The position numbers were made by a program, and so were the translations under genes. 64,000 nt of DNA, taken from the NCBI GenBank assembly GCA_963798085.1, contig CAWCRS010000002.1:320001-384000 (forward strand), written 5' to 3'. Positions 2,108 to 63,294 of the stretch are shown here, piece after piece (positions within the stretch are counted from its first letter, which is position 1; the number at the start of each line of letters is the position of its first letter). The notes below the pieces were generated by a model. It was not told the origin of the DNA and made no database searches. It saw only the letters and a program-made list of their open reading frames with translations. The stretch comes from an uncultured Gemmatimonadales bacterium (GTDB taxonomy: Bacteria > Gemmatimonadota > Gemmatimonadetes > Longimicrobiales > RSA9).

Positions 2108-3484
2108 TCAGTTCGCGTCTTTCCGCGTGTGCATTCCGGACAGCACCTCATCTACCCAGGCTTTCATCTCCGGGTACGCGTCGACGCGGGCGCCAAGCGC
2201 AATGAGCGCTCGCACAACAGCGGGATAGTCGATACCGTCGACCGGCGAGTGGACCGCGAACCACAGGGTGCTGTCCAGCACCGTGCCGCCGTAGCGGTTC
2301 AGCGTTTCCAGTGACGCGCCGTGCGCGATCAGCTGGCGCACGAGGTCGAGTCGCCCACGGGCGGCGGCCGTGTGGAGCGCGGTCATGTCTCCATCCGCGC
2401 CGGCTGCATCGACGCCCTTCCGCAGCAGCAGTTCGACGACGTCGCCACGACCGTAGCGGCAGGCCCATGTCAGCGCGTAACCCAGATGCACGGCGGGATC
2501 CTGCGGCAGGTGCGGCCACGGGACATCGACCAGAGGCGAGCCCGGCAACAGTCTGCCGTTGTCGTCGACGAAGCGGTCCACGAGATCAGCACGACCCATG
2601 GCCGCGGCCGAGATCACGTTGTCGGTGCGCGCGCCGCGCAACACCAGCGTTTCAGCTGCCCGCGGATACCCGAACATGAGCGACGTCATCAGCGGCGAGC
2701 CGTCGTCCGCCACGCCGTTGATCGCCGCGCCATGGTTCAGCAGCACCTCGACCAGTGCGCTCTGCACGCCCACAGCGTGCGGATGCACGCTCGACACCAG
2801 CATCTCCATCGTGGTGCACTGGTGGTCGTACATGCTGGCCAGCGCATCCGCCGCGGCGCCGGCCTCGAGCAGCACCGTCGCGATCGCGACGGCGTTGCGC
2901 GGCGAGCGCTGGCGGAAGCCCTCGTGGCCGTTGGCTGCGGTGTAATGCAGCAGTGTGGCGCGGTGCTCGCGTGTCGACCTCGCGTGCACGAGTCGCGGGC
3001 TTGCGTCGATCAGGCGCTGCACGGTCGCCAGGTCACCCGTCACAATGGCGTCGGCCGCTGTTTCGAAGTCCGACACCGCGGACCCCGGCTGGTCGCGCGA
3101 TGCAATGTGCTTCACGAACTTCGGCCAGGACTCAAAACCATGCAGTCGCGCGATGACGAGCTGTGCCTCGGAGAGCTGCAGTCGTGCCGGCGCACCGTCC
3201 GCCGGCAGCAGGCGTGAGCGACGCACGTCTTCCACGACTGCGTTCGCTTCGCGATCCATTCTTGCCGCGTCCGGTTCGCTGGCATGGCTGCGCCCGACCC
3301 ACGCCGGCGGCGCGCTCGCTGACTGTAACCGGGCGAGTCGCCGGATCCATGCCGCGGCCCAGGCGAGGACCGCACCGGCATCGCCCGTGTGCGCTGCCCC
3401 GAGCAGATCCCTGGCCAGTGTTCTGTATTGCGCGAGATTCGGGCGAGGTGCGAGCGGGATGGCGTCGGTGAAGCGGGTCTTCAT
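2108..3484 (-). CDS. Ankyrin-repeat protein with conserved N-terminal 'PxRPxL...AQxxIARxHGFxSW' domain
   Basis: ANK motifs (TLLHYTAA, SPLMTS, TALHTAAARGRLDLVRQLIAHGA); RBS AAAGGAG. Confidence 0.85.
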   Translation of the reverse strand: MKTRFTDAIPLAPRPNLAQYRTLARDLLGAAHTGDAGAVLAWAAAWIRRLARLQSASAPPAWVGRSHASEPDAARMDREANAVVEDVRRSRLLPADGAPARLQLSEAQLVIARLHGFESWPKFVKHIASRDQPGSAVSDFETAADAIVTGDLATVQRLIDASPRLVHARSTREHRATLLHYTAANGHEGFRQRSPRNAVAIATVLLEAGAAADALASMYDHQCTTMEMLVSSVHPHAVGVQSALVEVLLNHGAAINGVADDGSPLMTSLMFGYPRAAETLVLRGARTDNVISAAAMGRADLVDRFVDDNGRLLPGSPLVDVPWPHLPQDPAVHLGYALTWACRYGRGDVVELLLRKGVDAAGADGDMTALHTAAARGRLDLVRQLIAHGASLETLNRYGGTVLDSTLWFAVHSPVDGIDYPAVVRALIALGARVDAYPEMKAWVDEVLSGMHTRKDAN

Positions 3485-3513
3485 ACGAAGCTCCTTTCAG
3501 GGAAATCGCCTGG

Positions 3514-3594
3514 AGTCCGCACAAAGCAGGCTGAAAGAAGTTTCGTAACTTCGGCTGTTGTGCTTCCGGGTGGGCACGGCCCTTTCCGCGGACT
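3514..3594 (-). ncRNA. Candidate cis-regulatory RNA leader, copy 1
   Basis: AGTCCGC/GCGGACT closing stem; AAA-GGGC-CGT-GCCC-ACCCGG; GAAGTT-ACGA-AACTTC hairpin; homologous to 6144-6223 and 55532-55610. Confidence 0.75.
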
Positions 3595-3713
3595 GGATGC
3601 GCCCCGAGCGCTGCGCTCAAACTGGCATCGCGGGGCGGCCCGGACAAGGCACCTTCACACGCAACGTGCCGCTGCACGGATGGCCTGGCGCGCAAGCCCG
3701 GCGTGCGCGTGAC

Positions 3714-4616
3714 TCAGGTCGTCTGCCAGAGCGCGTACGCCACCACCGCGATCACCCAGCCCGCGAGCACAATGTTGAACGCGATCATCAGCCCAAGACC
3801 GCTCCCGATCGCACGCCCCCAGCGGTGCCGGTACGCCCGCCGCAGTGACAGGATCAGGTGTAGCAAGGCAGCCAGCGTGAGGAACCCGACGACATAGCGA
3901 TCGACGGCAACCGGCAGCAGTCGCTCGATGCCCATGGCGAGCATGAAAAACGCGATCCAGTTCAGGGCGAATACCAGGTGCAGCAGTGGCGGATGCCTCG
4001 GGCTGAACAGGAACAGCGCCAGGGCAAAGGCCAGAATCGAACCGATCATGAAAGGCGGCAGCCCCTGGCTGACCGCCGAGCGGAAACGCTCCCGGAACAG
4101 ATCCGGCGATACTCCGCGCGCGGAAAGCGCCGCCAGCTGCTCCGTCGAGATGCTCTGGAACGTCTTTACGCTGCTCAGCGAACTGACGATCTGATTGTCC
4201 GGCGTAACCTGAACGAACGGACGGAGCGAGTTGGCAAGGAAGAAGACGGCCGCAGCCAGCAGGTACAGCTGCAGCGGCTGCATGTAGCGCGCGCGCCGTC
4301 CTCCCAGGAACGCGACCGTCAGCTCGCCAGGTCGAAACACGAGATCGAGCAGACTGCGCACCGGCCGCGAGCGGATGTCGAGCACGTCGCTCAGCGACTC
4401 GGCCAGGAACGCTCTCAACGAATTGCCGCCGCGCTCCGCGCCCTGACCGCACTGATGGCAGAACGGACCCAGCAGCGCTGCGCCGCAACTGGCGCAGCCG
4501 GCAGCGGATTCCTCACCCTCTCCGAATGGCGTGTTAGCAGGACTGCTTTGTCGTGACACGTCAGCGCGTCCAGCTGGCGCAGCCCGGGCGGTACGTCCAC
4601 GGCGACTGCCCGCCAC
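3714..4616 (-). CDS. DUF3667-like membrane protein with N-terminal zinc ribbon (true start possibly GTG 4559)
   Basis: CASCGAALLGPFCHQCGQ; 'RPGELT..FLGGRRARYMQPLQLYL'; several TM segments. Confidence 0.75.
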   Translation of the reverse strand: MAGSRRGRTARAAPAGRADVSRQSSPANTPFGEGEESAAGCASCGAALLGPFCHQCGQGAERGGNSLRAFLAESLSDVLDIRSRPVRSLLDLVFRPGELTVAFLGGRRARYMQPLQLYLLAAAVFFLANSLRPFVQVTPDNQIVSSLSSVKTFQSISTEQLAALSARGVSPDLFRERFRSAVSQGLPPFMIGSILAFALALFLFSPRHPPLLHLVFALNWIAFFMLAMGIERLLPVAVDRYVVGFLTLAALLHLILSLRRAYRHRWGRAIGSGLGLMIAFNIVLAGWVIAVVAYALWQTT

Positions 4617-4736
4617 AGCCGACGTCCCCCCTGGCGATGTTCATGGCACACACCTCAGAGGCAAACGCGTTCAGCCACCAGACCTCCTTCGGGTCGGCCA
4701 GTGATTCGATGGCCAGGCGCTCGTGTGGAATGTGCA

Positions 4737-6116
4737 CTATTGCGGCGCCTCGCGGGCAGAGTCAACCACGGGCTGGCTGAACATCAGCTCGATACCATCC
4801 GGGTCGCGGATGCCGAACTCGCGCTGCCCGTAGAAAGCGGTGTGCAGGTCCTGCGTGAACCGTATCCCGGGACCGGATGGCGACGCCGCTCTTCCCGCAT
4901 GCTCCCGCTCGATCTGCCGGCGCCTGAGCGTCGCGTACAACGCATCGAGCCGGTCCGTGCGGATCCACAGGCTGAGCGCCGTGGTGGCGCCTCGCCAGGG
5001 ATCGCTCGACGGCACGAACATGATGTTGGCGGCACCGAAAGACAGGTGCGCCCAGTCCAGCCGGCCGTCCTCCGCGTGGCTGTCGCTCAGCACGAATCCG
5101 ATCGCCTGGTACCAGTCCACCGTGGCCGCCATGTCGCGCACACCCACCATGGGCGTGAGGCCGCCCACTGATGCGGCCAGGCTCGCCGCATCCACACGCG
5201 GCGTTGCGGGTGGCTCGGGCTCGGTTGCGCCCGCTTCGCGCAGCAGACGCATGGCCTCGCGGTCCCCGCGCAGCATCGCGATCTCGAGCGGCGTGCGTCC
5301 CTTCGCATCGCGCGCCTCCACGTCCGCACCCAGCGCGAGCAGCAGCTCGAGCGTGTGGTAGTGCTCGCCCGTGCGGAACAGGCCGCCCACGAGTCCGTCC
5401 GGCGGCGCGATCACGTAGTGCAACGCCGTCTGCTCCTGCTCGAAGCGTGACAGCCGGCGGCGAATGGCGTTCGGATCGTGGGCGACGACGCTCTTCACGA
5501 TCCCGGCTTCGCCCATGGCAATCGCCGAGAAGATGTGGTGGCGCGCACCGCGCGAGACGAGCAGTGCCACCACATCGCGGCGCGCCTCTCCGAACACGGT
5601 GGCGGCTCCGATCACGTCCAGCTGATGCACATCGCCGTACCCGTGCACATCCGACCCGCCGTCCAGCAGTGCGCGCACGGACTCGATCGGCCCGTGTCCA
5701 GCCGCGCCGTGCAGCGGCAGCGCATGGTCGCCGGCATCGCGCGCGTTCGGGTACGCGCCCCGCTCCAGCAGCAGCTGCACCGCGTCCGGGTGGCGCACCG
5801 CCAGGTGCAGTCCGGTGGTGCCTTCGCGACTGCGTGCCGTGACGAGGTGAGGATCCTGATCGAGCAGAGCACGCAGCGCAGCGGTGTCGCCTGCGACACA
5901 CGCCGCGAACCACGCGTCCTGTGCGGGAACATTGCGACGGTCCAGCTCGGCCTTCAGTGCCCGCCAGCTCGGAAATCCGTGCTCGCGCGCAACGGCCCGC
6001 TGCGCTTCGCTGAGACGCGCCGTCGGTTGCGTCGCGCGCAGCTCGCGCAGCCGTTCCTTGGCCAGCTTGCGCAGGTACTCGAGGGATGGACGTTCAGGAA
6101 GATCGATGCCCGGCAT
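4737..6116 (-). CDS. Ankyrin-repeat protein with the conserved N-terminal domain, fused to a C-terminal VOC/glyoxalase domain
   Basis: LPERPSLEYLRKLAK...AQRAVAREHGFPSW; ANK repeats; VOC motifs 'TPMVGVRDMAATVDWY..IGF' and 'FYGQREFGIRDPDG'. Confidence 0.85.
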   Translation of the reverse strand: MPGIDLPERPSLEYLRKLAKERLRELRATQPTARLSEAQRAVAREHGFPSWRALKAELDRRNVPAQDAWFAACVAGDTAALRALLDQDPHLVTARSREGTTGLHLAVRHPDAVQLLLERGAYPNARDAGDHALPLHGAAGHGPIESVRALLDGGSDVHGYGDVHQLDVIGAATVFGEARRDVVALLVSRGARHHIFSAIAMGEAGIVKSVVAHDPNAIRRRLSRFEQEQTALHYVIAPPDGLVGGLFRTGEHYHTLELLLALGADVEARDAKGRTPLEIAMLRGDREAMRLLREAGATEPEPPATPRVDAASLAASVGGLTPMVGVRDMAATVDWYQAIGFVLSDSHAEDGRLDWAHLSFGAANIMFVPSSDPWRGATTALSLWIRTDRLDALYATLRRRQIEREHAGRAASPSGPGIRFTQDLHTAFYGQREFGIRDPDGIELMFSQPVVDSAREAPQ

Positions 6117-6143
6117 GATACCCTTCCTTCCGTGGTGCCCGGT

Positions 6144-6223
6144 GTCCGCGTTGCTCGGGCTGGAAGTCAGGGTCGCTGACCGATGATGACGTCATCCGGG
6201 TGGGTTCAACCCTTTACGCGGAC
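6144..6223 (-). ncRNA. Candidate cis-regulatory RNA leader, copy 2
   Basis: GTCCGCGT/ACGCGGAC closing stem; AAA-GGGT-TGA-ACCC-ACCCGG; GATG-ACGT-CATC and GTCAG-CGACC-CTGAC hairpins. Confidence 0.75.
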
Positions 6224-6280
6224 CGACGGCCGCCCTGCCGGCCGGCAGTGAATCTAATCGACGGTTCGATCCGCGGGCAA

Positions 6281-8968
6281 TCATTCGCTCTCGTGCAGGG
6301 CTCGCGCGGGTGGCACACGGCTGGCCCGCAGCGCGGGCGCGAGCGCGGCAAGCAGCGCCACCAGCATCAGCGTCGCCGGCACCATGGTCAGCACCAGAAC
6401 GTCACGGGGAGGCGTGCGGAAGAGGAAGCCGCGCAACGCAGGCGCGGCAAGCGCCGTGATGGCGGTCCCGGCAAGAGTCGCCGCACCGGCAACCATGGCG
6501 TTGGTCCGCAGCACGTCCAGAAGAATGCCGGCGGGCCGCGCACCCAGCGAGTTGCGAATGGCGAATTCGCGCGTCTGCCGCACCACGCTGAAGGAAACGA
6601 CACCGGTCACGCCCACCGCGGCAATGATCAGCGCGAGCGCGCCGAAAACGGACAGCAGCGCCGCCAGAAAACGCTCTACTGCCGTGCTCGCGCGCAGCAC
6701 GTCGCGCATCGTGGTCGCAGGACCCACCGCCACACCCGGATCCATGGCGGCAACGACGGCGCGCACCGCAGGGAGCACGGTTGCCGGCGCATTCGCTGCC
6801 TGCAGCACAACGGTGAGATTGCGCACCCAGCCGGCACTGAACGTGGCAACCTGTGGCAACGACAGGAGAATCTCGGGTGCTGCTTCGGCGCTCAGGCTGC
6901 TGCTCCGCACATCGTCATACACGCCCACAATGGTGATCAGGCCGAACGCTGGGGGTGCGAATGTCGCGCGCACCCGCCTGCCGATGGCCGAAACGCCCGG
7001 CCAGAGCATGTGCGCCGCCGAACGATTCACCAGCGCGACATTCATGCTGCCGGCGCGATCGCCCGCCGCGAGATCGCGGCCTTCCGCCAGCGCAATGCCC
7101 AGGGTCCGCAGGTATCCGGCGGATGCGGCCTGCACTGCGACGCCCACGCGGTCTTCGCGATCCACCGCGTCCTCACGCACGACGTACTCGAAGCGCTGCG
7201 CGTCGCGCAGCGGCAGGCCGCGCACGACTGCAATGGCGCGCACCGCGTCCATGCTCTCGAGGCGCTGCTGCAGCGCGTCATAGAAGCCCGTGATGGCGGC
7301 TGCGTTCGCGTAGCGCGTCACCGGCAGCGTCAGATCCAGCACTGCGCGCGACGCGGCATCCAGCCCCGGATTCACCGCGTTCAGCGCGAGCAGTGAACGC
7401 ACCAGCAGCGACGCGCCGGCCAGGAGGACCGTGGCCAGCGCTACCTGGCTCGCCACCAGCACACGCAGTCCGTGCGAAGCACCTGTCCGCCCGCGACCCG
7501 AGCTGCGCAGCAGGACGGACGGATCCTGCCGTGCCGCGTGCCACGCGGGTGCGAGCGTGAACAGCACGCCTGTCAACAGCGACAGCGCCAGCGCGAACAG
7601 CACGACGCGCGCGTCCAGCATGACGCCCCCCGTGCCCGGCAGATCGCGTGGCGCCAGTCGCAGCATGAGCGGCATCCCGCTCCCGGCCAGCAGCAGACCG
7701 ACCAGACCCCCCGCGCACCCCAGCACCACACCTTCCAGCAGCACCGGCCTCGCCACGCGTGCGCCGCTGCCACCCAGCGCGATGCGCACACCCACCTCCG
7801 ACCGGCGGGTCTCGCTCCTCGCTAACAGAAGATTGGCGACATTGGCACAGGCCAGCAGCAGCAGCAGACCGGACGCGAAGCAGAGCAGCACGGCGACCCG
7901 GCGCGCCGAGCCCAGCACGCGGTCACCCAGCAGCGCAATCTGCGCATCGTGCCCGTCCAGGCCGAACGAGTGCTGCCCCGCATAACGCCGAGCCCACACG
8001 CGCTCGAGGTTTTCCAGCTCGGTACGCACGGCCCTGACCGGAACACCCGGCCGCAGCGAGGCGATCGCCACCAGGCCGTGACCGGACCGGTCCGTGGCCC
8101 AGGACGCCGGGTCCAGGACAGCGTGCACCCAGACGTCGGCCGCCACGCCCGGCAGGTGCACGTCAGGCGCCAGCACACCGATGATGGCCACGGTCCGCGA
8201 ACCTGCTGTTAGCGTGCCTCCCCGCACAATGCCGGCATCGCCCCCGTACGCGGACTGCCAGAGCCCGTGCGAGATCAGCGCCACGGGCGGTGCTCCCACG
8301 ACGTTGTCGCTCGCACCCGGCAGTCTGCCCGCCGCCGTGCGCGCGCCCACCAGCCGGTAAATGTCCCCCACCGTGTTCGCCACCGTCACAACGCGCGCAG
8401 GGCCGCCCGCCACCGGCTGCAGCAGCAGCGATCCGGGAAACCAGCCACCCGTGTGCTCGAAGCTCTTCACGTCCCGGCTCAGGTCCGTGAATTCCGCCGC
8501 CGAAACCAGAAACGCCTGTCCCGGCTGCCGCTCGAACGTGCTCCAGATCGAGACCAGGCGATCCTCGTCCGGCAGACCGAGTCCGCGCAACACCGTCGCG
8601 TCCACCACCGAGAACACCGCGGTCGTGGCGCCAATGCCCAGCCCCACCGTGAGGATGGCGACCGCGGCAAAGCCCGGACGCCGCCGCAGTCCGCGCAGCG
8701 CCACGCGCACGTCTGCTGACAGCCCTGTCAGCAGGCCCCGGGACACGCCCGGCTCCACCGCCAGCGGAGACACCGGATCTCCCGTGACACGTACCACGAC
8801 CGCAGTCCAGAGGACATCGCGGAGTGCGCGCAGCACCAGCCACCCGCGCGCCGGCCAGGCGGATTCTTCCCACTGCTCCTCGAACATGCGCGCCATCTCA
8901 TCGCCGTACCGGCGACGGAAACGGCCCGGCAGAAGCCGCAGCAGAACGCGATAGACGCCGCCCATCAC
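6281..8968 (-). CDS. ADOP-type duplicated MacB/FtsX permease
   Basis: 'LGIGATTAVFSVV', 'LLLLACANVANLLLAR', second FtsX half 'REFAIRNSLGA'; no ATPase adjacent. Confidence 0.9.
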   Translation of the reverse strand: MMGGVYRVLLRLLPGRFRRRYGDEMARMFEEQWEESAWPARGWLVLRALRDVLWTAVVVRVTGDPVSPLAVEPGVSRGLLTGLSADVRVALRGLRRRPGFAAVAILTVGLGIGATTAVFSVVDATVLRGLGLPDEDRLVSIWSTFERQPGQAFLVSAAEFTDLSRDVKSFEHTGGWFPGSLLLQPVAGGPARVVTVANTVGDIYRLVGARTAAGRLPGASDNVVGAPPVALISHGLWQSAYGGDAGIVRGGTLTAGSRTVAIIGVLAPDVHLPGVAADVWVHAVLDPASWATDRSGHGLVAIASLRPGVPVRAVRTELENLERVWARRYAGQHSFGLDGHDAQIALLGDRVLGSARRVAVLLCFASGLLLLLACANVANLLLARSETRRSEVGVRIALGGSGARVARPVLLEGVVLGCAGGLVGLLLAGSGMPLMLRLAPRDLPGTGGVMLDARVVLFALALSLLTGVLFTLAPAWHAARQDPSVLLRSSGRGRTGASHGLRVLVASQVALATVLLAGASLLVRSLLALNAVNPGLDAASRAVLDLTLPVTRYANAAAITGFYDALQQRLESMDAVRAIAVVRGLPLRDAQRFEYVVREDAVDREDRVGVAVQAASAGYLRTLGIALAEGRDLAAGDRAGSMNVALVNRSAAHMLWPGVSAIGRRVRATFAPPAFGLITIVGVYDDVRSSSLSAEAAPEILLSLPQVATFSAGWVRNLTVVLQAANAPATVLPAVRAVVAAMDPGVAVGPATTMRDVLRASTAVERFLAALLSVFGALALIIAAVGVTGVVSFSVVRQTREFAIRNSLGARPAGILLDVLRTNAMVAGAATLAGTAITALAAPALRGFLFRTPPRDVLVLTMVPATLMLVALLAALAPALRASRVPPARALHESE

Positions 8969-48206: not shown

Positions 48207-48861
48207 TCAGCGCCATGCTCGCGCAGGAGACCGAATGATCTCGAGGTCCTCCACGAGCGTGCCTGCGGTGCCGCCGGCGCCGGTCGAGCGCGCGGCGAGG
48301 TGTAGCGGTGTGGACCCGCGTGTGCGCAAGCGGAGGTCCGTCCTGGCTCCGAGCTCCACCAGCTTGCGCACCGCCGCGGTGCCACGCGCGCGCACGGCGC
48401 GATGCAGCGGTGTCGCGCCGCCACGGTCGCGGTGGTTCAACTCCGCGCCCGCCTGGACGAGTGCGTCAATGATCGCGGCCTGAGCCTCGGGGTTCCAGAC
48501 GCCGCGCGTGCGCGGCCGCGCATCGCACGCATAGTGCAGAGCCGTTGCACCGCGCCGGTTCGTGGCGTTCGCGACCGCGCCGGATTCCAGCAGGATTGCG
48601 ACCGCCTCGAGCTGCAGTGCGGCGGCGGCCAGGTGCAACGGCGAGTCCCCCGAGTACAGCCAGTGCGGGATCGACGGAATCAGCACATCGCCTGACACAC
48701 GGTTAGCTGCAGCCGCCGGAGCAGACCGCAGGACTCGGCGCACCTCGCCGGGACCGGCCAGTACGGCCTCGAAGATCGCTTCCAGTACGATTCCCACCGC
48801 TGTCGACTCGCGTTTTCTCAGAATATCGAGATGCGGCTTGCGGCGAGGCAAACGCATCGCA
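48207..48861 (-). CDS. Ankyrin-repeat protein lacking the conserved N-terminal domain; C-terminus frameshifted
   Basis: SPLHLAAA, TALHYAC, TPLHRAV, TPLHLAA; 'LLREHGADLDARD..RTP' in another frame. Confidence 0.75.
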
Positions 48862-48927
48862 TGTCCGGTCTGACACGGCTCGCCGCGACGATCCCGTTGT
48901 CCGGAGCCGATCCCATCACCTGATCGC

Positions 48928-49341
48928 TTACGACTGAGGCCGTCCGGCACGACCGCCGCCCGGTTTGACCGCCGCCTCGTACTCCGCTAACAGCCGCCTG
49001 GGTGCGACGCGCCGCCAGGCTTCGACCAGCAGTTCCTGCAGCTGCTCGCGGCTGACAGCTGACAGTCGAACCAGCACCCAGGGGTAGTCGCGATAGTGAT
49101 CCGTCAGGTAGAACACAGCGGGCATGGCTCGGAGCAGGTGTTCGCGCTCGATGAAGTCGGTGCGCACCACCAGCGTGTCAATGTCTTCCCGCAGTCGCGC
49201 GATGAGTTTGCCACGCACCTTCAGCGCGGCGGTTCCATACGACCGACCCTCTTCGACGCCCGGCAGGCTCCGGCCCATTTCGCTCACCGTTGCAAAAGTG
49301 ACGGCCGCACGTGCCCGCGCGCGAGGCTTCTTCGAGGTCAT
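48928..49341 (-). CDS. MmcQ/YjbR-family protein
   Basis: LPGVEE..SYGT..LKVRGK...HY..YPWVLVRL. Confidence 0.8.
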   Translation of the reverse strand: MTSKKPRARARAAVTFATVSEMGRSLPGVEEGRSYGTAALKVRGKLIARLREDIDTLVVRTDFIEREHLLRAMPAVFYLTDHYRDYPWVLVRLSAVSREQLQELLVEAWRRVAPRRLLAEYEAAVKPGGGRAGRPQS

Positions 49342-54616: not shown

Positions 54617-55531
54617 CGAGACCTCCTCATACTGACTCGGTTGGAACCCCCGCCGCAGTTCGAATGCGAACCTGCGTTATTCTAACATGCGTCGCCTGCC
54701 AATGAGCAAACCGGATCGGGGACGCGGTTCTCGGCAGGCCAACACCCTTGTACCCCCTGCCTCGCACGAGTCGCCCGGATGCAGGTACCTAACACTGCCT
54801 CATCTGGCACGCGCCGTCCCCAGCTTGGGCCAGGATCATGCGCGTCCTTGTAACCGCTCAGCGGCCATGGCGGTCGTTGGGCCTCTGGACCGCCGACGTT
54901 TCGTGACAGGCGTCATGTTCTGTAAGTCACGCATGCCTGCGAAACCTTGCCGGAGCTCCTCTTGCGGGAGACCGAGGTTCGCAGGCGTCAGGATCCATTC
55001 TCCTCGGCGCCCTCAGGTCCACGGCGCGCTCGGGCTGAATCGTGGCCCGTTCTCGAAATCCAATGTGTACTGGGTTCCGTTGGCGTGATGGCGGTTTCGC
55101 GACGGGTTCGAGCCGCTCGTGGCGCGGGCCGGTCGGCGCACTCCCAAACTACCACCCCGGCCGCCGCGCAGTTGCCGCATCGATGCTGATGAGATCACTT
55201 GCCGCTTTGCGGTGCAGCCCAAATTGAGTCGAACCTTCACCGTGGAGCAAGAAGGGAGCGACGTCACCTTCCAACGATCGAAGCGACATCGCCATTTGAC
55301 CGTTCATGCATTCCGCACATCACTGCGGAATCTGAATCCGCTGCTACAGTACAGCGATTGGGCCACACAAATCGGTTAATGTCCTCGTGGGCGGAGATCC
55401 TATTGAGAAATGACCTCAGGATTCGGGGGATGAGCGCAATGGAGGGGGCATTAAAGGGAGCCGGGCACCCACACGCTTGACTTCCAGTCCCCTCGCCGGC
55501 AACGTTGCCGGGTGCGCCCGGGGCGCCCGCG

Positions 55532-55610
55532 GGTCCGCGCGAAGGACTGAGTCCACCCCCTGAATCGAGTTCATGGCACGGCTGTCTCCGTGCTGGCCGG
55601 CTTGCGGACC
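55532..55610 (+). ncRNA. Candidate cis-regulatory RNA leader, copy 3
   Basis: GGTCCGC/GCGGACC closing stem; GAA-GGAC-TGA-GTCC-ACCC; TGAA-TCGAG-TTCA and GCACGG-CTGTCT-CCGTGC hairpins. Confidence 0.75.
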
Positions 55611-55634
55611 GCTGGCTCTCAGCATGGAGGAACT

Positions 55635-57213
55635 ATGACAGCCAGGCAGCTGCCGTCCCGCCCCAGCCTCGACCAGCTCAAGCGGCTGGCGAAGGACCTG
55701 CTCCGCGACGCTCGCGCGAAAGACCTCGGCGCCCTCAGTCGCTTCCGCACCCTTCCGGCGTACGCCGCCACATCCGATGCCGCGCTCACCCGCGCGCCGC
55801 TCGCACTGCACGACGCGCAGTCAGTGATTGCCCGCGAGCACGGCTTCACATCATGGAACGAACTGCGTGAGCATGTCGAGGCGCTGACACTCGCGTTCGA
55901 TGCCGCCGTCGTCCAGTTCATCGAGGCGGCCACCGACGGCCGCACCGAGCGCGCGGAACGACTCCTCGCGCTGCACCCCGGTATTGCGCGCGCGAGCTTT
56001 CACACAGCGCTCCTCCTCGGCGACGCGGCAACGGCCGTGGCGCAGCTCGCCACGCAGCCCACGCTCGCCACCTCCCCGGCGGGCCGCGCGCGTGGGAGCC
56101 GCTCCTCTACGTCTGCCACACTCCGCGGCGCACGACAATGAAATGCGACGCGAGGGACTCGTCGTCATCGCGCGACGCCTCATCGCCCTCGGCGCAGATC
56201 CTGACACGCGGTTTCCGTGGCTCCACCACGGCGTGCACCGCCCCGTGCTGTGGGGTGCTGCTCGCATGACGCGCGTCCTGCCACTCGTGGAGCTGCTGCT
56301 CGACGCGGGAGCGGATCCCGAACGATGGCGTCACGCTGCCGCTCCGGTGGGCGCGGGCGACATCCCCGTACTCGAGCGACTCGTCGCGCACGGCGCCGAC
56401 GTGAATCAGCCCTGGGCCACGGACGGCGCAGCGTCGCTCTATGCGGCGCTCACCTGGGCGGGCACGTCGGACGGCGCGCACTGGCTGCTGCAGCATGGCG
56501 CGGATCCCGATCCGGTCTTTGCCGCGAATGGTGAGACGCCGCTGCACGTGGTGGCGCGCAGCTGGGACGTGTCGCTTGCCGATGCCCTCGTGAGCAACGG
56601 CGCCAATGTGTCGCGCCGGTCCGCAGCCGGCCGCACGCCCTACGCGGTCGCGGAGCTGGCAGGCAATCGCGCCGTCGCCGAGTGGTTGCTCGCGCACGGC
56701 GCGTCACCCGAGTTGTCCGCCGTGGACAGGCTCGTCGCCTCGTGCAGTCGCGGCGACCGTGCGGCCGCCGAGGCAATGCTCGCCGCCCGCCCCGCGCTCC
56801 GCGACGAGATCGGCGACGAGCATTACAACGTGCTCTACCAGGCGGCGGAGCGCGGCGACACATGGCGCTCGAGGCGATGCTGGCGTGCGGTTTCGACACG
56901 AACCGCCCTGACGCGTCGATCGGCAAGACAGCGCTCCACGTGGCCGCAATGGAAGGCTGGCCGGACGCGGTTCGTGTTCTGCTCGCGCACGGAGCATCGG
57001 TGTCCGCGCGCGATCGCGAATTCCACGGCCAGCCGCTCGATATGGGCGGCCGAGGGATCACGCAACGCGCGCGAGGGTCGCGATCACGCGGCGGTCGCGC
57101 GGCTGCTGCTGGACGCGGGCTCACCGGTCGACTGGGAGACGGGAGCGGAGCCGGCGGAGGGCATCGTCGATATCATCGCTGCGTGGAGCGAAATGGAGCC
57201 CGCCGGGCTGTAA
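55635..57213 (+). pseudogene. Ankyrin-repeat protein with the conserved N-terminal domain; several frameshifts
   Basis: LPSRPSLDQLKRLAK...AQSVIAREHGFTSW; ANK motifs GETPLHVVA and KTALHVAA split over ORFs 55590, 55900 and 56682. Confidence 0.8.
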
Positions 57214-62710: not shown

Positions 62711-63294
62711 GTCGGAGGAGAACGGAGGTCGCCCACCGCCCCCTCCACAGATCCGGACGTGCAGGATCACCGCATCCGGCGCCTGCCTCAAGTGGTAACG
62801 CCGAAGCGCACGAGCGGATACCAGGACGGATTGGGTGCCATGTCAGCCGGTTCCTCGGCCTTGTTCGGCGGCTTCTGCGGTGCTACCAGGCTGTCCGACA
62901 ACTCGTGCTCGTTCATCACCGGTGTGTGTCCTTGGACTTCCCGGTGCGGTCTGTAAGAAGCTCACTGGCAGACAAGCACGAGGTCCCGCGGTTCCCACGT
63001 GAGGTGCGTCCATGCATGCACGGGGTCTCTGACCGCGCCGGGTCCCTTCGCGTCTCGCCCAATCGACGCGTCAGGTGTGGCCTTCCGCTTTGCCCGAGAG
63101 CGTCGGCACCCGAATCGCCCGCCATAGGACGGGGAAGCCATTTTCACGGCTCAATACCTGGCCTGCCCTTCCCCTGTCAACGCTTCGCCGCCACCTCACG
63201 AGTGACAACGCATGACGCGGGGCCAATGTGGGTGGCTGCCTTTCAGCGTATGATTCTTTCATTCACAACACTCGACCGGTTTTGACCGGCGCAC
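62711..63294 (-). mobile_element. Internally deleted (ORF-less) group II intron
   Basis: 5' GTGCG at 63294; domain-I-like sequence (GCGAAGCGTTGACAGGGG, ATTGAGCCGTGAAA, GGAAGGC, GAGACCCCGTGCATG, GGGAACC); last IEP codons 'YPLVRFGVTT*'; domain V GGCGCCGGATGCGGTGATCCTGCACGTCCGGATCT; domain VI ending CCGAC at 62711. Confidence 0.88.

Follow-up and report, generated by a model that had tools for sequence, protein, structure and literature searches.

A covarying leader RNA, predicted to sequester the Shine-Dalgarno sequence, upstream of genes that share an N-terminal domain in Gemmatimonadota and other bacterial phyla

The window considered here is a 64,000-nucleotide (nt) stretch of contig CAWCRS010000002.1 (positions 320,001 to 384,000) from an uncultured Gemmatimonadales bacterium. 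It carries three genes, A, B and C, whose products begin with the same small helical domain (the N-domain), and each gene is preceded by a copy of one structured leader RNA, the subject of this report. A preliminary description of the window had pointed out three elements with GTCCGC...GCGGAC, a hairpin with compensatory changes, a Shine-Dalgarno (SD) sequence and an ATG, all of which are present in the sequence. The shared N-terminal domain that it had assigned to the three downstream genes was likewise seen in all of them, with gene C split between two frames; the split is a frameshift, a pseudogene or an assembly error. A fourth ankyrin gene (48207-48950), said to lack both domain and leader, indeed consists of ankyrin repeats alone, and no leader RNA match was found at it in the genome searches with the two covariance models described below (R1 and R2).

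2108..3484, minus strand: gene A, N-domain and ankyrin repeats (458 amino acids)
4737..6116, minus strand: gene B, N-domain, ankyrin repeats and glyoxalase/VOC domain (459 amino acids)
55635..57213, plus strand: gene C, N-domain open reading frame (ORF) 55635-56141 ending early, ankyrin part in another frame at 55900-57213

The GTCCGC and GCGGAC sequences lie at 3588-3593 and 3515-3520 (minus strand) in copy A, at 6218-6223 and 6144-6149 (minus strand) in copy B, and at 55533-55538 and 55604-55609 (plus strand) in copy C. An alignment of the window copies brings out what they have in common: GTCCGCG, AAGG, a hairpin of 4 bp with 3 nt in its loop, CCACCC, a block rich in pyrimidines, GCC and GCGGAC. 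The hairpin (P2) is formed by GGGC/GCCC, GGGT/ACCC and GGAC/GTCC in the three copies and is followed by ACCC. Five copies were used to build a covariance model (R1) in which the two helices of the preliminary description were the only ones annotated. It recovered six sites in the 6.2-Mb genome (E-values 1e-13 to 6e-6), whereas the site next in rank reached only 2.5; the match is far beyond chance. Three of the copies lie outside the window, on contigs C5 and C2 of the same genome. In all six an ATG follows 20-25 nt downstream, and the downstream proteins of all six start with the N-domain; in the three window copies an SD sequence and the ATG are found 24-29 nt beyond GCGGAC. Each window copy constitutes a 5' leader of ~135 nt, measured from the predicted transcription start to the start codon.

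The architecture of the family was derived from 94 leaders, namely 34 model matches from relatives and 60 genuine-looking matches from a pattern scan of named genomes. For the scan, 80 loci were fetched among the matches listed, of which 20 were chance matches inside coding sequence; the scan shows presence, not frequency. Five of the 94 rows (L022, L023, L027, L043 and L044) come from genomes flagged as unpublished, and the counts show no visible dependence on them. Inclusion of the flanks and alignment with MAFFT revealed conserved, pairing-competent blocks beyond the limits set earlier: instead of ~80 nt, the element reaches ~20 nt further in the 5' direction and, at its 3' side, as far as the start codon.

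The 5' half begins with P0, a 5-bp hairpin ~20 nt upstream of the element as first delimited. The P0 loop (YRGG) pairs with CCAYCYG immediately 3' of P2, forming a pseudoknot (PK); the ACCC that had been called invariant is so in the window copies, reads ACCY across the family, and is one strand of this pseudoknot. A 2-bp clamp, CC before GUCCGC with GG after it, displays GUCCGC as a loop of 7-8 nt. After P2 comes a linker of 14-56 nt. The 3' half is ordered as an anti-SD block (CGAHCYUCYUUC), GCCYG, 3-7 nt, GCGGAC, 0-3 nt and CRGGC, and ends with a short spacer, the SD (GRAAGGAG) and a few more paired bases up to the start codon. Helix 7 (GCCYG:CRGGC) and the anti-SD:SD pairing together form one interrupted hairpin of ~20 bp, the lock. 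The conserved RGCC noted earlier belongs to helix 7. Since GCGGAC sits in the apical loop of this hairpin, the 6-bp pairing GUCCGC:GCGGAC, formerly taken for a closing stem, is rather a long-range loop-loop helix (P1). The linker contains no conserved structure: folded together with the block, it has a minimum free energy (MFE) with z<-2 in only 13/94 leaders, and the sequence-variable hairpins proposed there are not conserved structures. In model searches the 5' core, a double pseudoknot of ~60 nt, proved near-invariant across at least five phyla. The parts of the three window copies are as follows, R2 being the covariance model of the extended element.

3482..3614, minus strand: leader copy A, whole, from P0 to the start codon (R2 match 100.7 bits, E 3e-16 in its own genome)
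3598..3612, minus strand: copy A, P0 hairpin, whose loop CGGG (3603-3606) pairs with CCCG (3567-3570) as PK
3586..3596, minus strand: copy A, clamp CC (3595-3596) with GG (3586-3587), enclosing the loop A-GUCCGC; P1 5' strand at 3588-3593
3572..3582, minus strand: copy A, P2 hairpin GGGC-CGU-GCCC, with covarying pairs
3547..3566, minus strand: copy A, variable linker without conserved structure
3527..3546, minus strand: copy A, anti-SD block ACGAAACUUCUUUC (3533-3546) and helix-7 5' strand GCCUG (3527-3531), with partners at 3485-3498 and 3508-3512
3515..3520, minus strand: copy A, GCGGAC as 3' strand of P1, located in the loop at the apex of the sequestering hairpin
3485..3512, minus strand: copy A, helix-7 3' strand CAGGC (3508-3512), spacer and SD region GAAAGGAGCUUCGU (3485-3498); hairpin MFE -20.7 kcal/mol, SD paired
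6114..6245, minus strand: leader copy B, whole (R2 match 94.3 bits)
6251..6256, minus strand: copy B, putative promoter element, -10-like TAGATT 13 nt before the P0 stem, assigned from sequence
6197..6243, minus strand: copy B, 5' core, with P0 6228-6243, PK 6233-6236 with 6197-6200, GUCCGC 6218-6223 and P2 6202-6212
6225-6226 with 6216-6217, minus strand: copy B, clamp, with one U.U mismatch
6118..6175, minus strand: copy B, SD-sequestering hairpin (MFE -23.7 kcal/mol; also in the full-length MFE fold), made of anti-SD block 6162-6175, GCCCG 6156-6160, GCGGAC 6144-6149, CGGGC 6137-6141 and SD region 6118-6131
55511..55637, plus strand: leader copy C, whole (R2 match 75.6 bits)
55513..55559, plus strand: copy C, 5' core, with P0 55513-55528, PK 55519-55522 with 55556-55559, GUCCGC 55533-55538 and P2 55544-55554; a shifted clamp CGC/GCG flanking GUCCGC was recognized by eye
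55580..55634, plus strand: copy C, SD-sequestering hairpin (MFE -27.5 kcal/mol; also in the full-length MFE fold), made of block 55580-55593, GGCCG 55595-55599, GCGGAC 55604-55609, CUGGC 55612-55616 and SD region 55622-55634; the block is unusual, its CUCCGUGCUG being matched by CAGCAUGGAG around the SD

The evidence for this fold is covariation. In the MAFFT alignment, to which no structure was fitted (93 sequences), 83.5% of the cells are paired, compared with 77.3% in column shuffles (0/500 reach the observed value) and with 41-49% when the partners are slid by 1-3 columns; cells with changes on both sides number 278 versus 117 in shuffles. One PK pair occurs there as AU 54, GC 34, GU 4 and CG 1, with none unpaired. 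Two P2 pairs (GC 68 / AU 23, and CG 63 / AU 16 / UA 9), a helix-7 pair (CG 46 / UA 22 / UG 8) and a clamp pair (CG 77 / AU 6 / UA 4) vary in the same manner. The model R2 encodes P0, P2 and the lock, and leaves out P1, PK and the clamp. In the alignment fitted to it (94 sequences), 89.8% of the cells are paired versus 79.3% after shuffling, and double-change cells number 388 versus 122. The PK columns (AU 56 / GC 34 / GU 3, 0 unpaired) are the top pair by mutual information, and P2 is 99.5% paired, with two covarying pairs (GC 68 / AU 24, and CG 64 / AU 16 / UA 9). In a blind all-against-all calculation of mutual information with average product correction (APC), the pairs of the model rank at the top, and the clamp was uncovered without prior proposal.

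P1 is invariant in the 94-row set, where 60/94 rows were chosen by a pattern that fixes it. In the R2 matches from other phyla, where it is unconstrained, P1 is 99.5% paired, and four of its six pairs show changes on both sides. The variants include GUUCGC:GCGAAC, GUCCAC:GUGGAC and AUCCGC:GCGGAU, as well as GUCUGC:GCAGAC, GCCUGC:GCAGGC and GGCAGC:GCUGCC. The multistem structure proposed earlier is therefore strongly borne out by covariation, as is the pairing of GTCCGC with GCGGAC; P0, PK, the clamp and the SD-sequestering hairpin had been missed. Covariation shows the predicted fold of the transcript to be a compact 5' core followed by an interrupted, SD-pairing hairpin of ~20 bp.

The anti-SD block pairs with its own SD region at a mean of -15.1 kcal/mol, as against -10.5 kcal/mol with permuted partners, and 0/2000 permutations were as low. 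Across the 94 leaders the isolated hairpin has a mean MFE of -22.9 kcal/mol (range -13.7 to -35.3), and 93/94 have at least 70% of their SD core in pairs. It is very probable that the element is a real regulatory leader that sequesters the SD. In nested folding of the full-length leaders, the MFE structure is the P1-closed fold in copy A and the lock in copies B and C, which indicates two nested alternatives close in energy. The z-scores are low, only -0.8 to -2.9 for 80-nt cores folded singly and -0.4 to -0.9 for full leaders, and thermodynamics alone would have missed the element.

In 63/94 leaders a -10-like TANNNT begins 11-14 nt before the first stem column of P0, and TTG is found at -38..-34 in 56/94, both motifs being thinly scattered elsewhere. 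No promoter came out of a strict sigma-70 scan around the copies; the positional count of TANNNT and TTG is a looser criterion. Judged by the position of TANNNT, the transcript probably starts at the foot of P0, in which case the motif would form the whole 5' untranslated region (5' UTR). The preliminary description had named a transcription start downstream of the element as the finding that would speak against an RNA; instead, the promoter-like -10 box was found just upstream, and a start there is the prediction.

Among the Gemmatimonadota relatives, R2 gave 65 matches in 24/101 genomes, with 1-9 copies per genome; by family, 20/60 genomes of f1, 0/20 of f2 and 3/20 of f3 had matches. Samples of 151 genomes from each of four other phyla yielded 14 matches in 13 genomes of Acidobacteriota, 7 in 7 of Actinomycetota, 14 in 10 of Planctomycetota and 13 in 6 of Verrucomicrobiota. 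According to record titles, the genuine pattern matches among those listed add Burkholderia, an alphaproteobacterium, Myxococcota and Methylomirabilota, and also Limnocylindrales, Fimbriimonadaceae and Baltobacteraceae.

Comparison of R2 and N-domain profile coordinates in the relatives placed an N-domain ORF directly 3' of 62/65 leaders. Two further leaders (L026, G001:C162; L175, G028:C213:2700-5337) precede a DinB_2 gene with a signal peptide, whose stop codon abuts an N-domain ankyrin gene; this pair is a two-gene, translationally coupled operon under one leader. The last precedes an N-domain gene broken by a frameshift. Of the 65 matches, 20 come from three unpublished genomes (G015, G016 and G046), and the remaining 45 behave alike. 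In the other phyla an N-domain followed in 13/14 matches, the 14th lying at a contig end, and in 32/32. The linkage to the N-domain gene is strict, as expected of an autogenous leader of the S4 or S15 type (65/65, 13/13 testable and 32/32 model matches), and the near-exclusive linkage anticipated at the outset holds. The reverse linkage is looser: a leader stands before 64/70 N-domain genes of the relatives and before 7/10 in Actinomycetota. The RNA occurs only with the domain, and the domain can occur without the RNA.

Three of the six leaderless genes in the relatives belong to a divergent short subfamily, one has a poly-C-disrupted upstream region and two lie in unpublished genomes. A six-frame hidden Markov model (HMM) search of the genome under study found one further gene with a divergent N-domain and without a leader (C2:239197-239853, minus strand). 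Together with L176 and L177 it represents the short subfamily (~200 amino acids, RLKHALAVVA.EAG..W, without ankyrin repeats), which lacks the leader in three genomes. In the poly-C case (L174, G013:C2:1622400-1624100), long poly-C runs and repeated CAGGCGC units, not a leader, precede the gene; the leader may have been lost there, or the region may be an assembly artefact.

The only part common to the downstream genes is their first 60-90 residues. AlphaFold2 predicts three helices in this N-domain (12-29, 35-45 and 51-75 in gene B; mean pLDDT, the predicted local distance difference test score, 79.8). Its mean column identity is 26%, far less than the conservation of the RNA core. Helix 1 bears a basic stripe at i, i+4 and i+8 (K/R16 99%, K/R20 99%, R/K24 81%), and other conserved polar or tryptophan positions are Q39 (96%), R44 (90%), S50 (90%) and W51 (100%). 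In a library of 1.84 billion protein representatives, 11,210 matched the N-domain at E<=0.001. In 148 of the best 150 of these the domain begins within residues 1-20, in the other two at residues 87 and 90, and two or three tandem copies are frequent. About half of 60 long representatives carry ankyrin repeats, 12 carry Clp_N (two with a ClpX C4 zinc finger as well), five leucine-rich repeats (LRR) and two a FliM-like region, and for 19 Pfam offers no match; P0007, P0054, P0057 and P0072 exemplify fusions to Clp_N, ClpX C4 zinc finger, LRR and FliM-like modules. The window genes and their relatives add a fusion to VOC/glyoxalase. With a constant small head and variable protein-binding modules, the family looks adaptor-like, and it is possibly linked to Clp-type machines.

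Searches for a known counterpart of the N-domain gave little. Foldseek against the PDB returned no match at E<=0.001 (best E 1.7), a wide VIA-align search reached a best Z of 4.6, a sequence profile search of the PDB gave a designed protein as its best match (E 0.024), NCBIfam contained nothing for the domain and the Atlas only unnamed clusters at or below 0.87. There is a likeness to PF20066 (Glyoxalase_8), the N-terminal part of which (profile positions 5-59) aligns weakly with residues 9-63 of gene B, at 17.0 bits (cut-off 23.7, E 0.0064). This alignment points to the same small helical domain known in fusion to VOC domains, a helical part that Pfam does not define as a domain of its own. 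In the other five proteins tested, no PF20066 match was found in Pfam at E<=0.01, and a literature search found no paper naming PF20066. Residues 48-85 of L025 (AQ..AREyGF.SW..L) show a weak likeness to the N-terminus of the NCBIfam 'DNA helicase' PRK05973 (E 0.0015, 17.6 bits against a cut-off of 156).

The proposal of a cis-acting leader RNA outside the named families agrees with the comparison to Rfam 15. At gathering thresholds the window contains only a group II intron and nothing on the leader; at E<=10 around the three window copies nothing fell on the elements, including RF01068 and RF01750; and at E<=1 nothing fell on 15 leaders from other phyla. No description of the leader RNA was found in the open literature searched, which covered ankyrin-linked RNAs, GC-content intergenic-region (GC-IGR) work and Gemmatimonadetes motif work, motif-list supplements aside. 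In the article text of PMC11109978 and PMC8632094, supplements aside, the terms ankyrin, glyoxalase, DinB, Acidobacteri and Gemmatimon have counts of zero. The leader is a widespread, apparently uncatalogued cis-regulatory RNA, to be placed with the structured 5' UTRs that sequester the SD, and its tie to a single protein domain is exceptionally strict. Few widespread structured RNAs that carry two covarying pseudoknots and are missing from Rfam still come to light; the model searches place the leader in at least five phyla and the pattern scan adds others, often with several copies per genome, in soil lineages poorly covered by earlier searches for motifs. An Acido-Lenti-1 RNA (RF01687, 37.9 bits against a gathering score of 37) lies ~480 nt upstream of the leader on a Pirellulaceae contig (L060, 48-120, plus strand).

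Several known RNAs resemble the leader in part; apart from the Rfam test, the likenesses are drawn from the general features of those RNAs. SAM-II, preQ1-II/III and guanidine-III are translational riboswitches in which a pseudoknot holds the SD. Like them, the leader lies in a (predicted) 5' UTR and has a conserved core with pseudoknots, and a conserved anti-SD strand next to the sensor pairs with its SD. Its lock, however, is a long hairpin of -23 kcal/mol, whereas theirs is a short, ligand-dependent helix, and unlike the SD-holding riboswitches it is tied to one protein domain and has no Rfam match. Guanidine-II (mini-ykkC) and guanidine-IV (mepA) are kissing-loop riboswitches, and ZTP has two subdomains, a variable linker and a pseudoknot; like these, the leader has two structured parts, a variable linker and docking by loop-loop or pseudoknot pairing, with one part as expression platform, but its loops are GUCCGC:GCGGAC and not ACGR. 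The mRNA pseudoknots of S4 (alpha operon, double pseudoknot), S15 and T4 gene 32 are autoregulatory. The leader resembles these operators in its strict tie to the gene of one protein and in a (double) pseudoknot spanning the translation initiation region. It differs in that it is predicted to be closed when free, whereas those operators are translatable until the protein binds, in that the N-domain is no known RNA binder, and in its occurrence in many phyla at 1-9 copies per genome.

In the reading preferred here, the leader would act in cis as a 5'-UTR RNA that sets the frequency at which the downstream N-domain gene is translated. P1 loop-loop pairing would dock the lock onto the 5' core, translation would be OFF by default, and an effector acting on the near-invariant core would shift the anti-SD block between an SD-held and a released state, for example through capture of GCGGAC or of the block itself during transcription. 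The effector would be a small molecule or an ion, which would make the leader an orphan riboswitch, and most likely one that switches a stress-type regulon ON. A conserved, covarying core of the aptamer type in the (predicted) 5' UTR, as expected of a riboswitch, was found. Most widespread 5'-UTR motifs that combine pseudoknots with a platform pairing to the SD have proved to be riboswitches, and a stable lock that is OFF by default fits a ligand-induced ON switch and fits autorepression poorly. Three points thus speak for a riboswitch: a core with two pseudoknots that hardly varies from phylum to phylum, the base rate for such motifs and the fit of the OFF lock. The design itself is distinctive, a sensor core that docks by loop-loop pairing on the apex of an SD-locking hairpin across a linker of free length. 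Should it be an orphan riboswitch, its ligand would reveal what a family of >11,000 representative clusters with no known role responds to.

A number of results weigh against this reading. With only 0-3 nt between GCGGAC and CRGGC, P1 and the lock may coexist as a docked pseudoknot rather than alternate. Candidate anti-sequestors fared poorly. A hairpin between linker and block (P3) was rejected as a conserved structure on the low number of significant folds given above and is at most a possibility, though pairing can be seen by eye in several subfamilies; matched linker:block complementarity is weak (-6.0 versus -5.3 kcal/mol, 3/2000 permutations as low); and for the SD-mimic GGRAAGG of the core, matched and permuted energies show no difference (133/2000 as low). 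The downstream genes encode scaffold modules, not enzymes or transporters, and hint at no ligand. Finally, no operon without an N-domain gene followed the leader in ~110 model matches and at least 60 pattern matches, a linkage that suits a protein partner at least equally. The reading as a whole, small-molecule effector included, is accordingly tentative and given somewhat less than an even chance, and the small-molecule effector is ranked only slightly above autoregulation by the N-domain, two options between which the preliminary description had made no choice.

By analogy with the S4 and S15 operators, such autogenous control might consist in the binding of the N-domain to the 5' core or to the docked double pseudoknot of its own leader and those of its paralogues, maybe co-translationally in cis, which would stabilize the SD-sequestered fold. 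This is possible rather than probable. It would account for downstream genes that share only their first 60-90 residues while the rest varies, for the near-invariable N-terminal position of the domain among the best 150 proteins, for the basic stripe on helix 1 and for the two leaders that precede a DinB_2 gene coupled to an N-domain gene. The asymmetry of the linkage, with leaders never found without an N-domain gene and N-domain genes found without a leader in 6/70 and 3/10 cases, points the same way, but co-inheritance of the leader with the 5' end of the gene explains part of the linkage. An acidic protein partner might just as well be the target of the basic stripe, the fusions being adaptor-like, and the structure and sequence searches gave the domain no likeness to any known RNA-binding fold or family. 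Moreover, as the lock is very stable without any protein, a repressor seems superfluous, and the failure to find a well-conserved alternative partner for the anti-SD block counts against autoregulation as it does against a riboswitch. It is rather doubtful that leader and domain form a matched module in which a new three-helix RNA-binding domain recognizes the double-pseudoknot core of its own mRNA, possibly while still nascent. If they did, feedback would act in cis on each message, and adaptor-like proteins with ankyrin, LRR, Clp_N and ClpX-zinc-finger modules would share one translational circuit across many phyla; if the N-domain binds, it would be a new RNA-binding domain with the leader as its cognate operator.

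Less likely still, the leader may have no dedicated effector and act as a constitutive translational damper, or respond to some general influence, for instance temperature, RNase III on the ~20-bp helix, a small RNA (sRNA) on the anti-SD block or a helicase. The stable lock in 93/94 leaders, an anti-SD:SD pairing rich in A-U and G.U (one pair is UG 41 / CG 34) and the lack of a conserved alternative pairing in the linker-block folds and permutation tests would all suit this view, but a damper or thermometer needs the hairpin alone, which leaves a 60-nt core conserved nearly base for base and its covarying docking unexplained. An RNA thermometer of the ROSE or fourU type, in which an SD hairpin suffices, was rejected in view of the conserved double-pseudoknot core upstream and the lack of an Rfam match. 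That the blocks work as DNA operators or promoters, or are mere carry-over from paralogue duplication, as the inverted repeat GTCCGC/GCGGAC and the paralogy of the copies in this genome might suggest, is highly improbable, because compensatory changes keep the pairing in seven helices, two pseudoknots included, the interior has fully diverged with pairing retained, the promoter-like boxes lie upstream of the element and one block pairs with the SD itself.

As for the remaining content of the window, a DUF3667 membrane protein (3714-4616, minus strand) and an FtsX/MacB-type permease (6281-8968, minus strand) are encoded between and beside genes A and B, and no link was seen between the leader and these neighbours. 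The group II intron is represented by domain D1-D4-6 (RF02005) at 63023-63257 on the minus strand (138.8 bits, E 1.9e-39).

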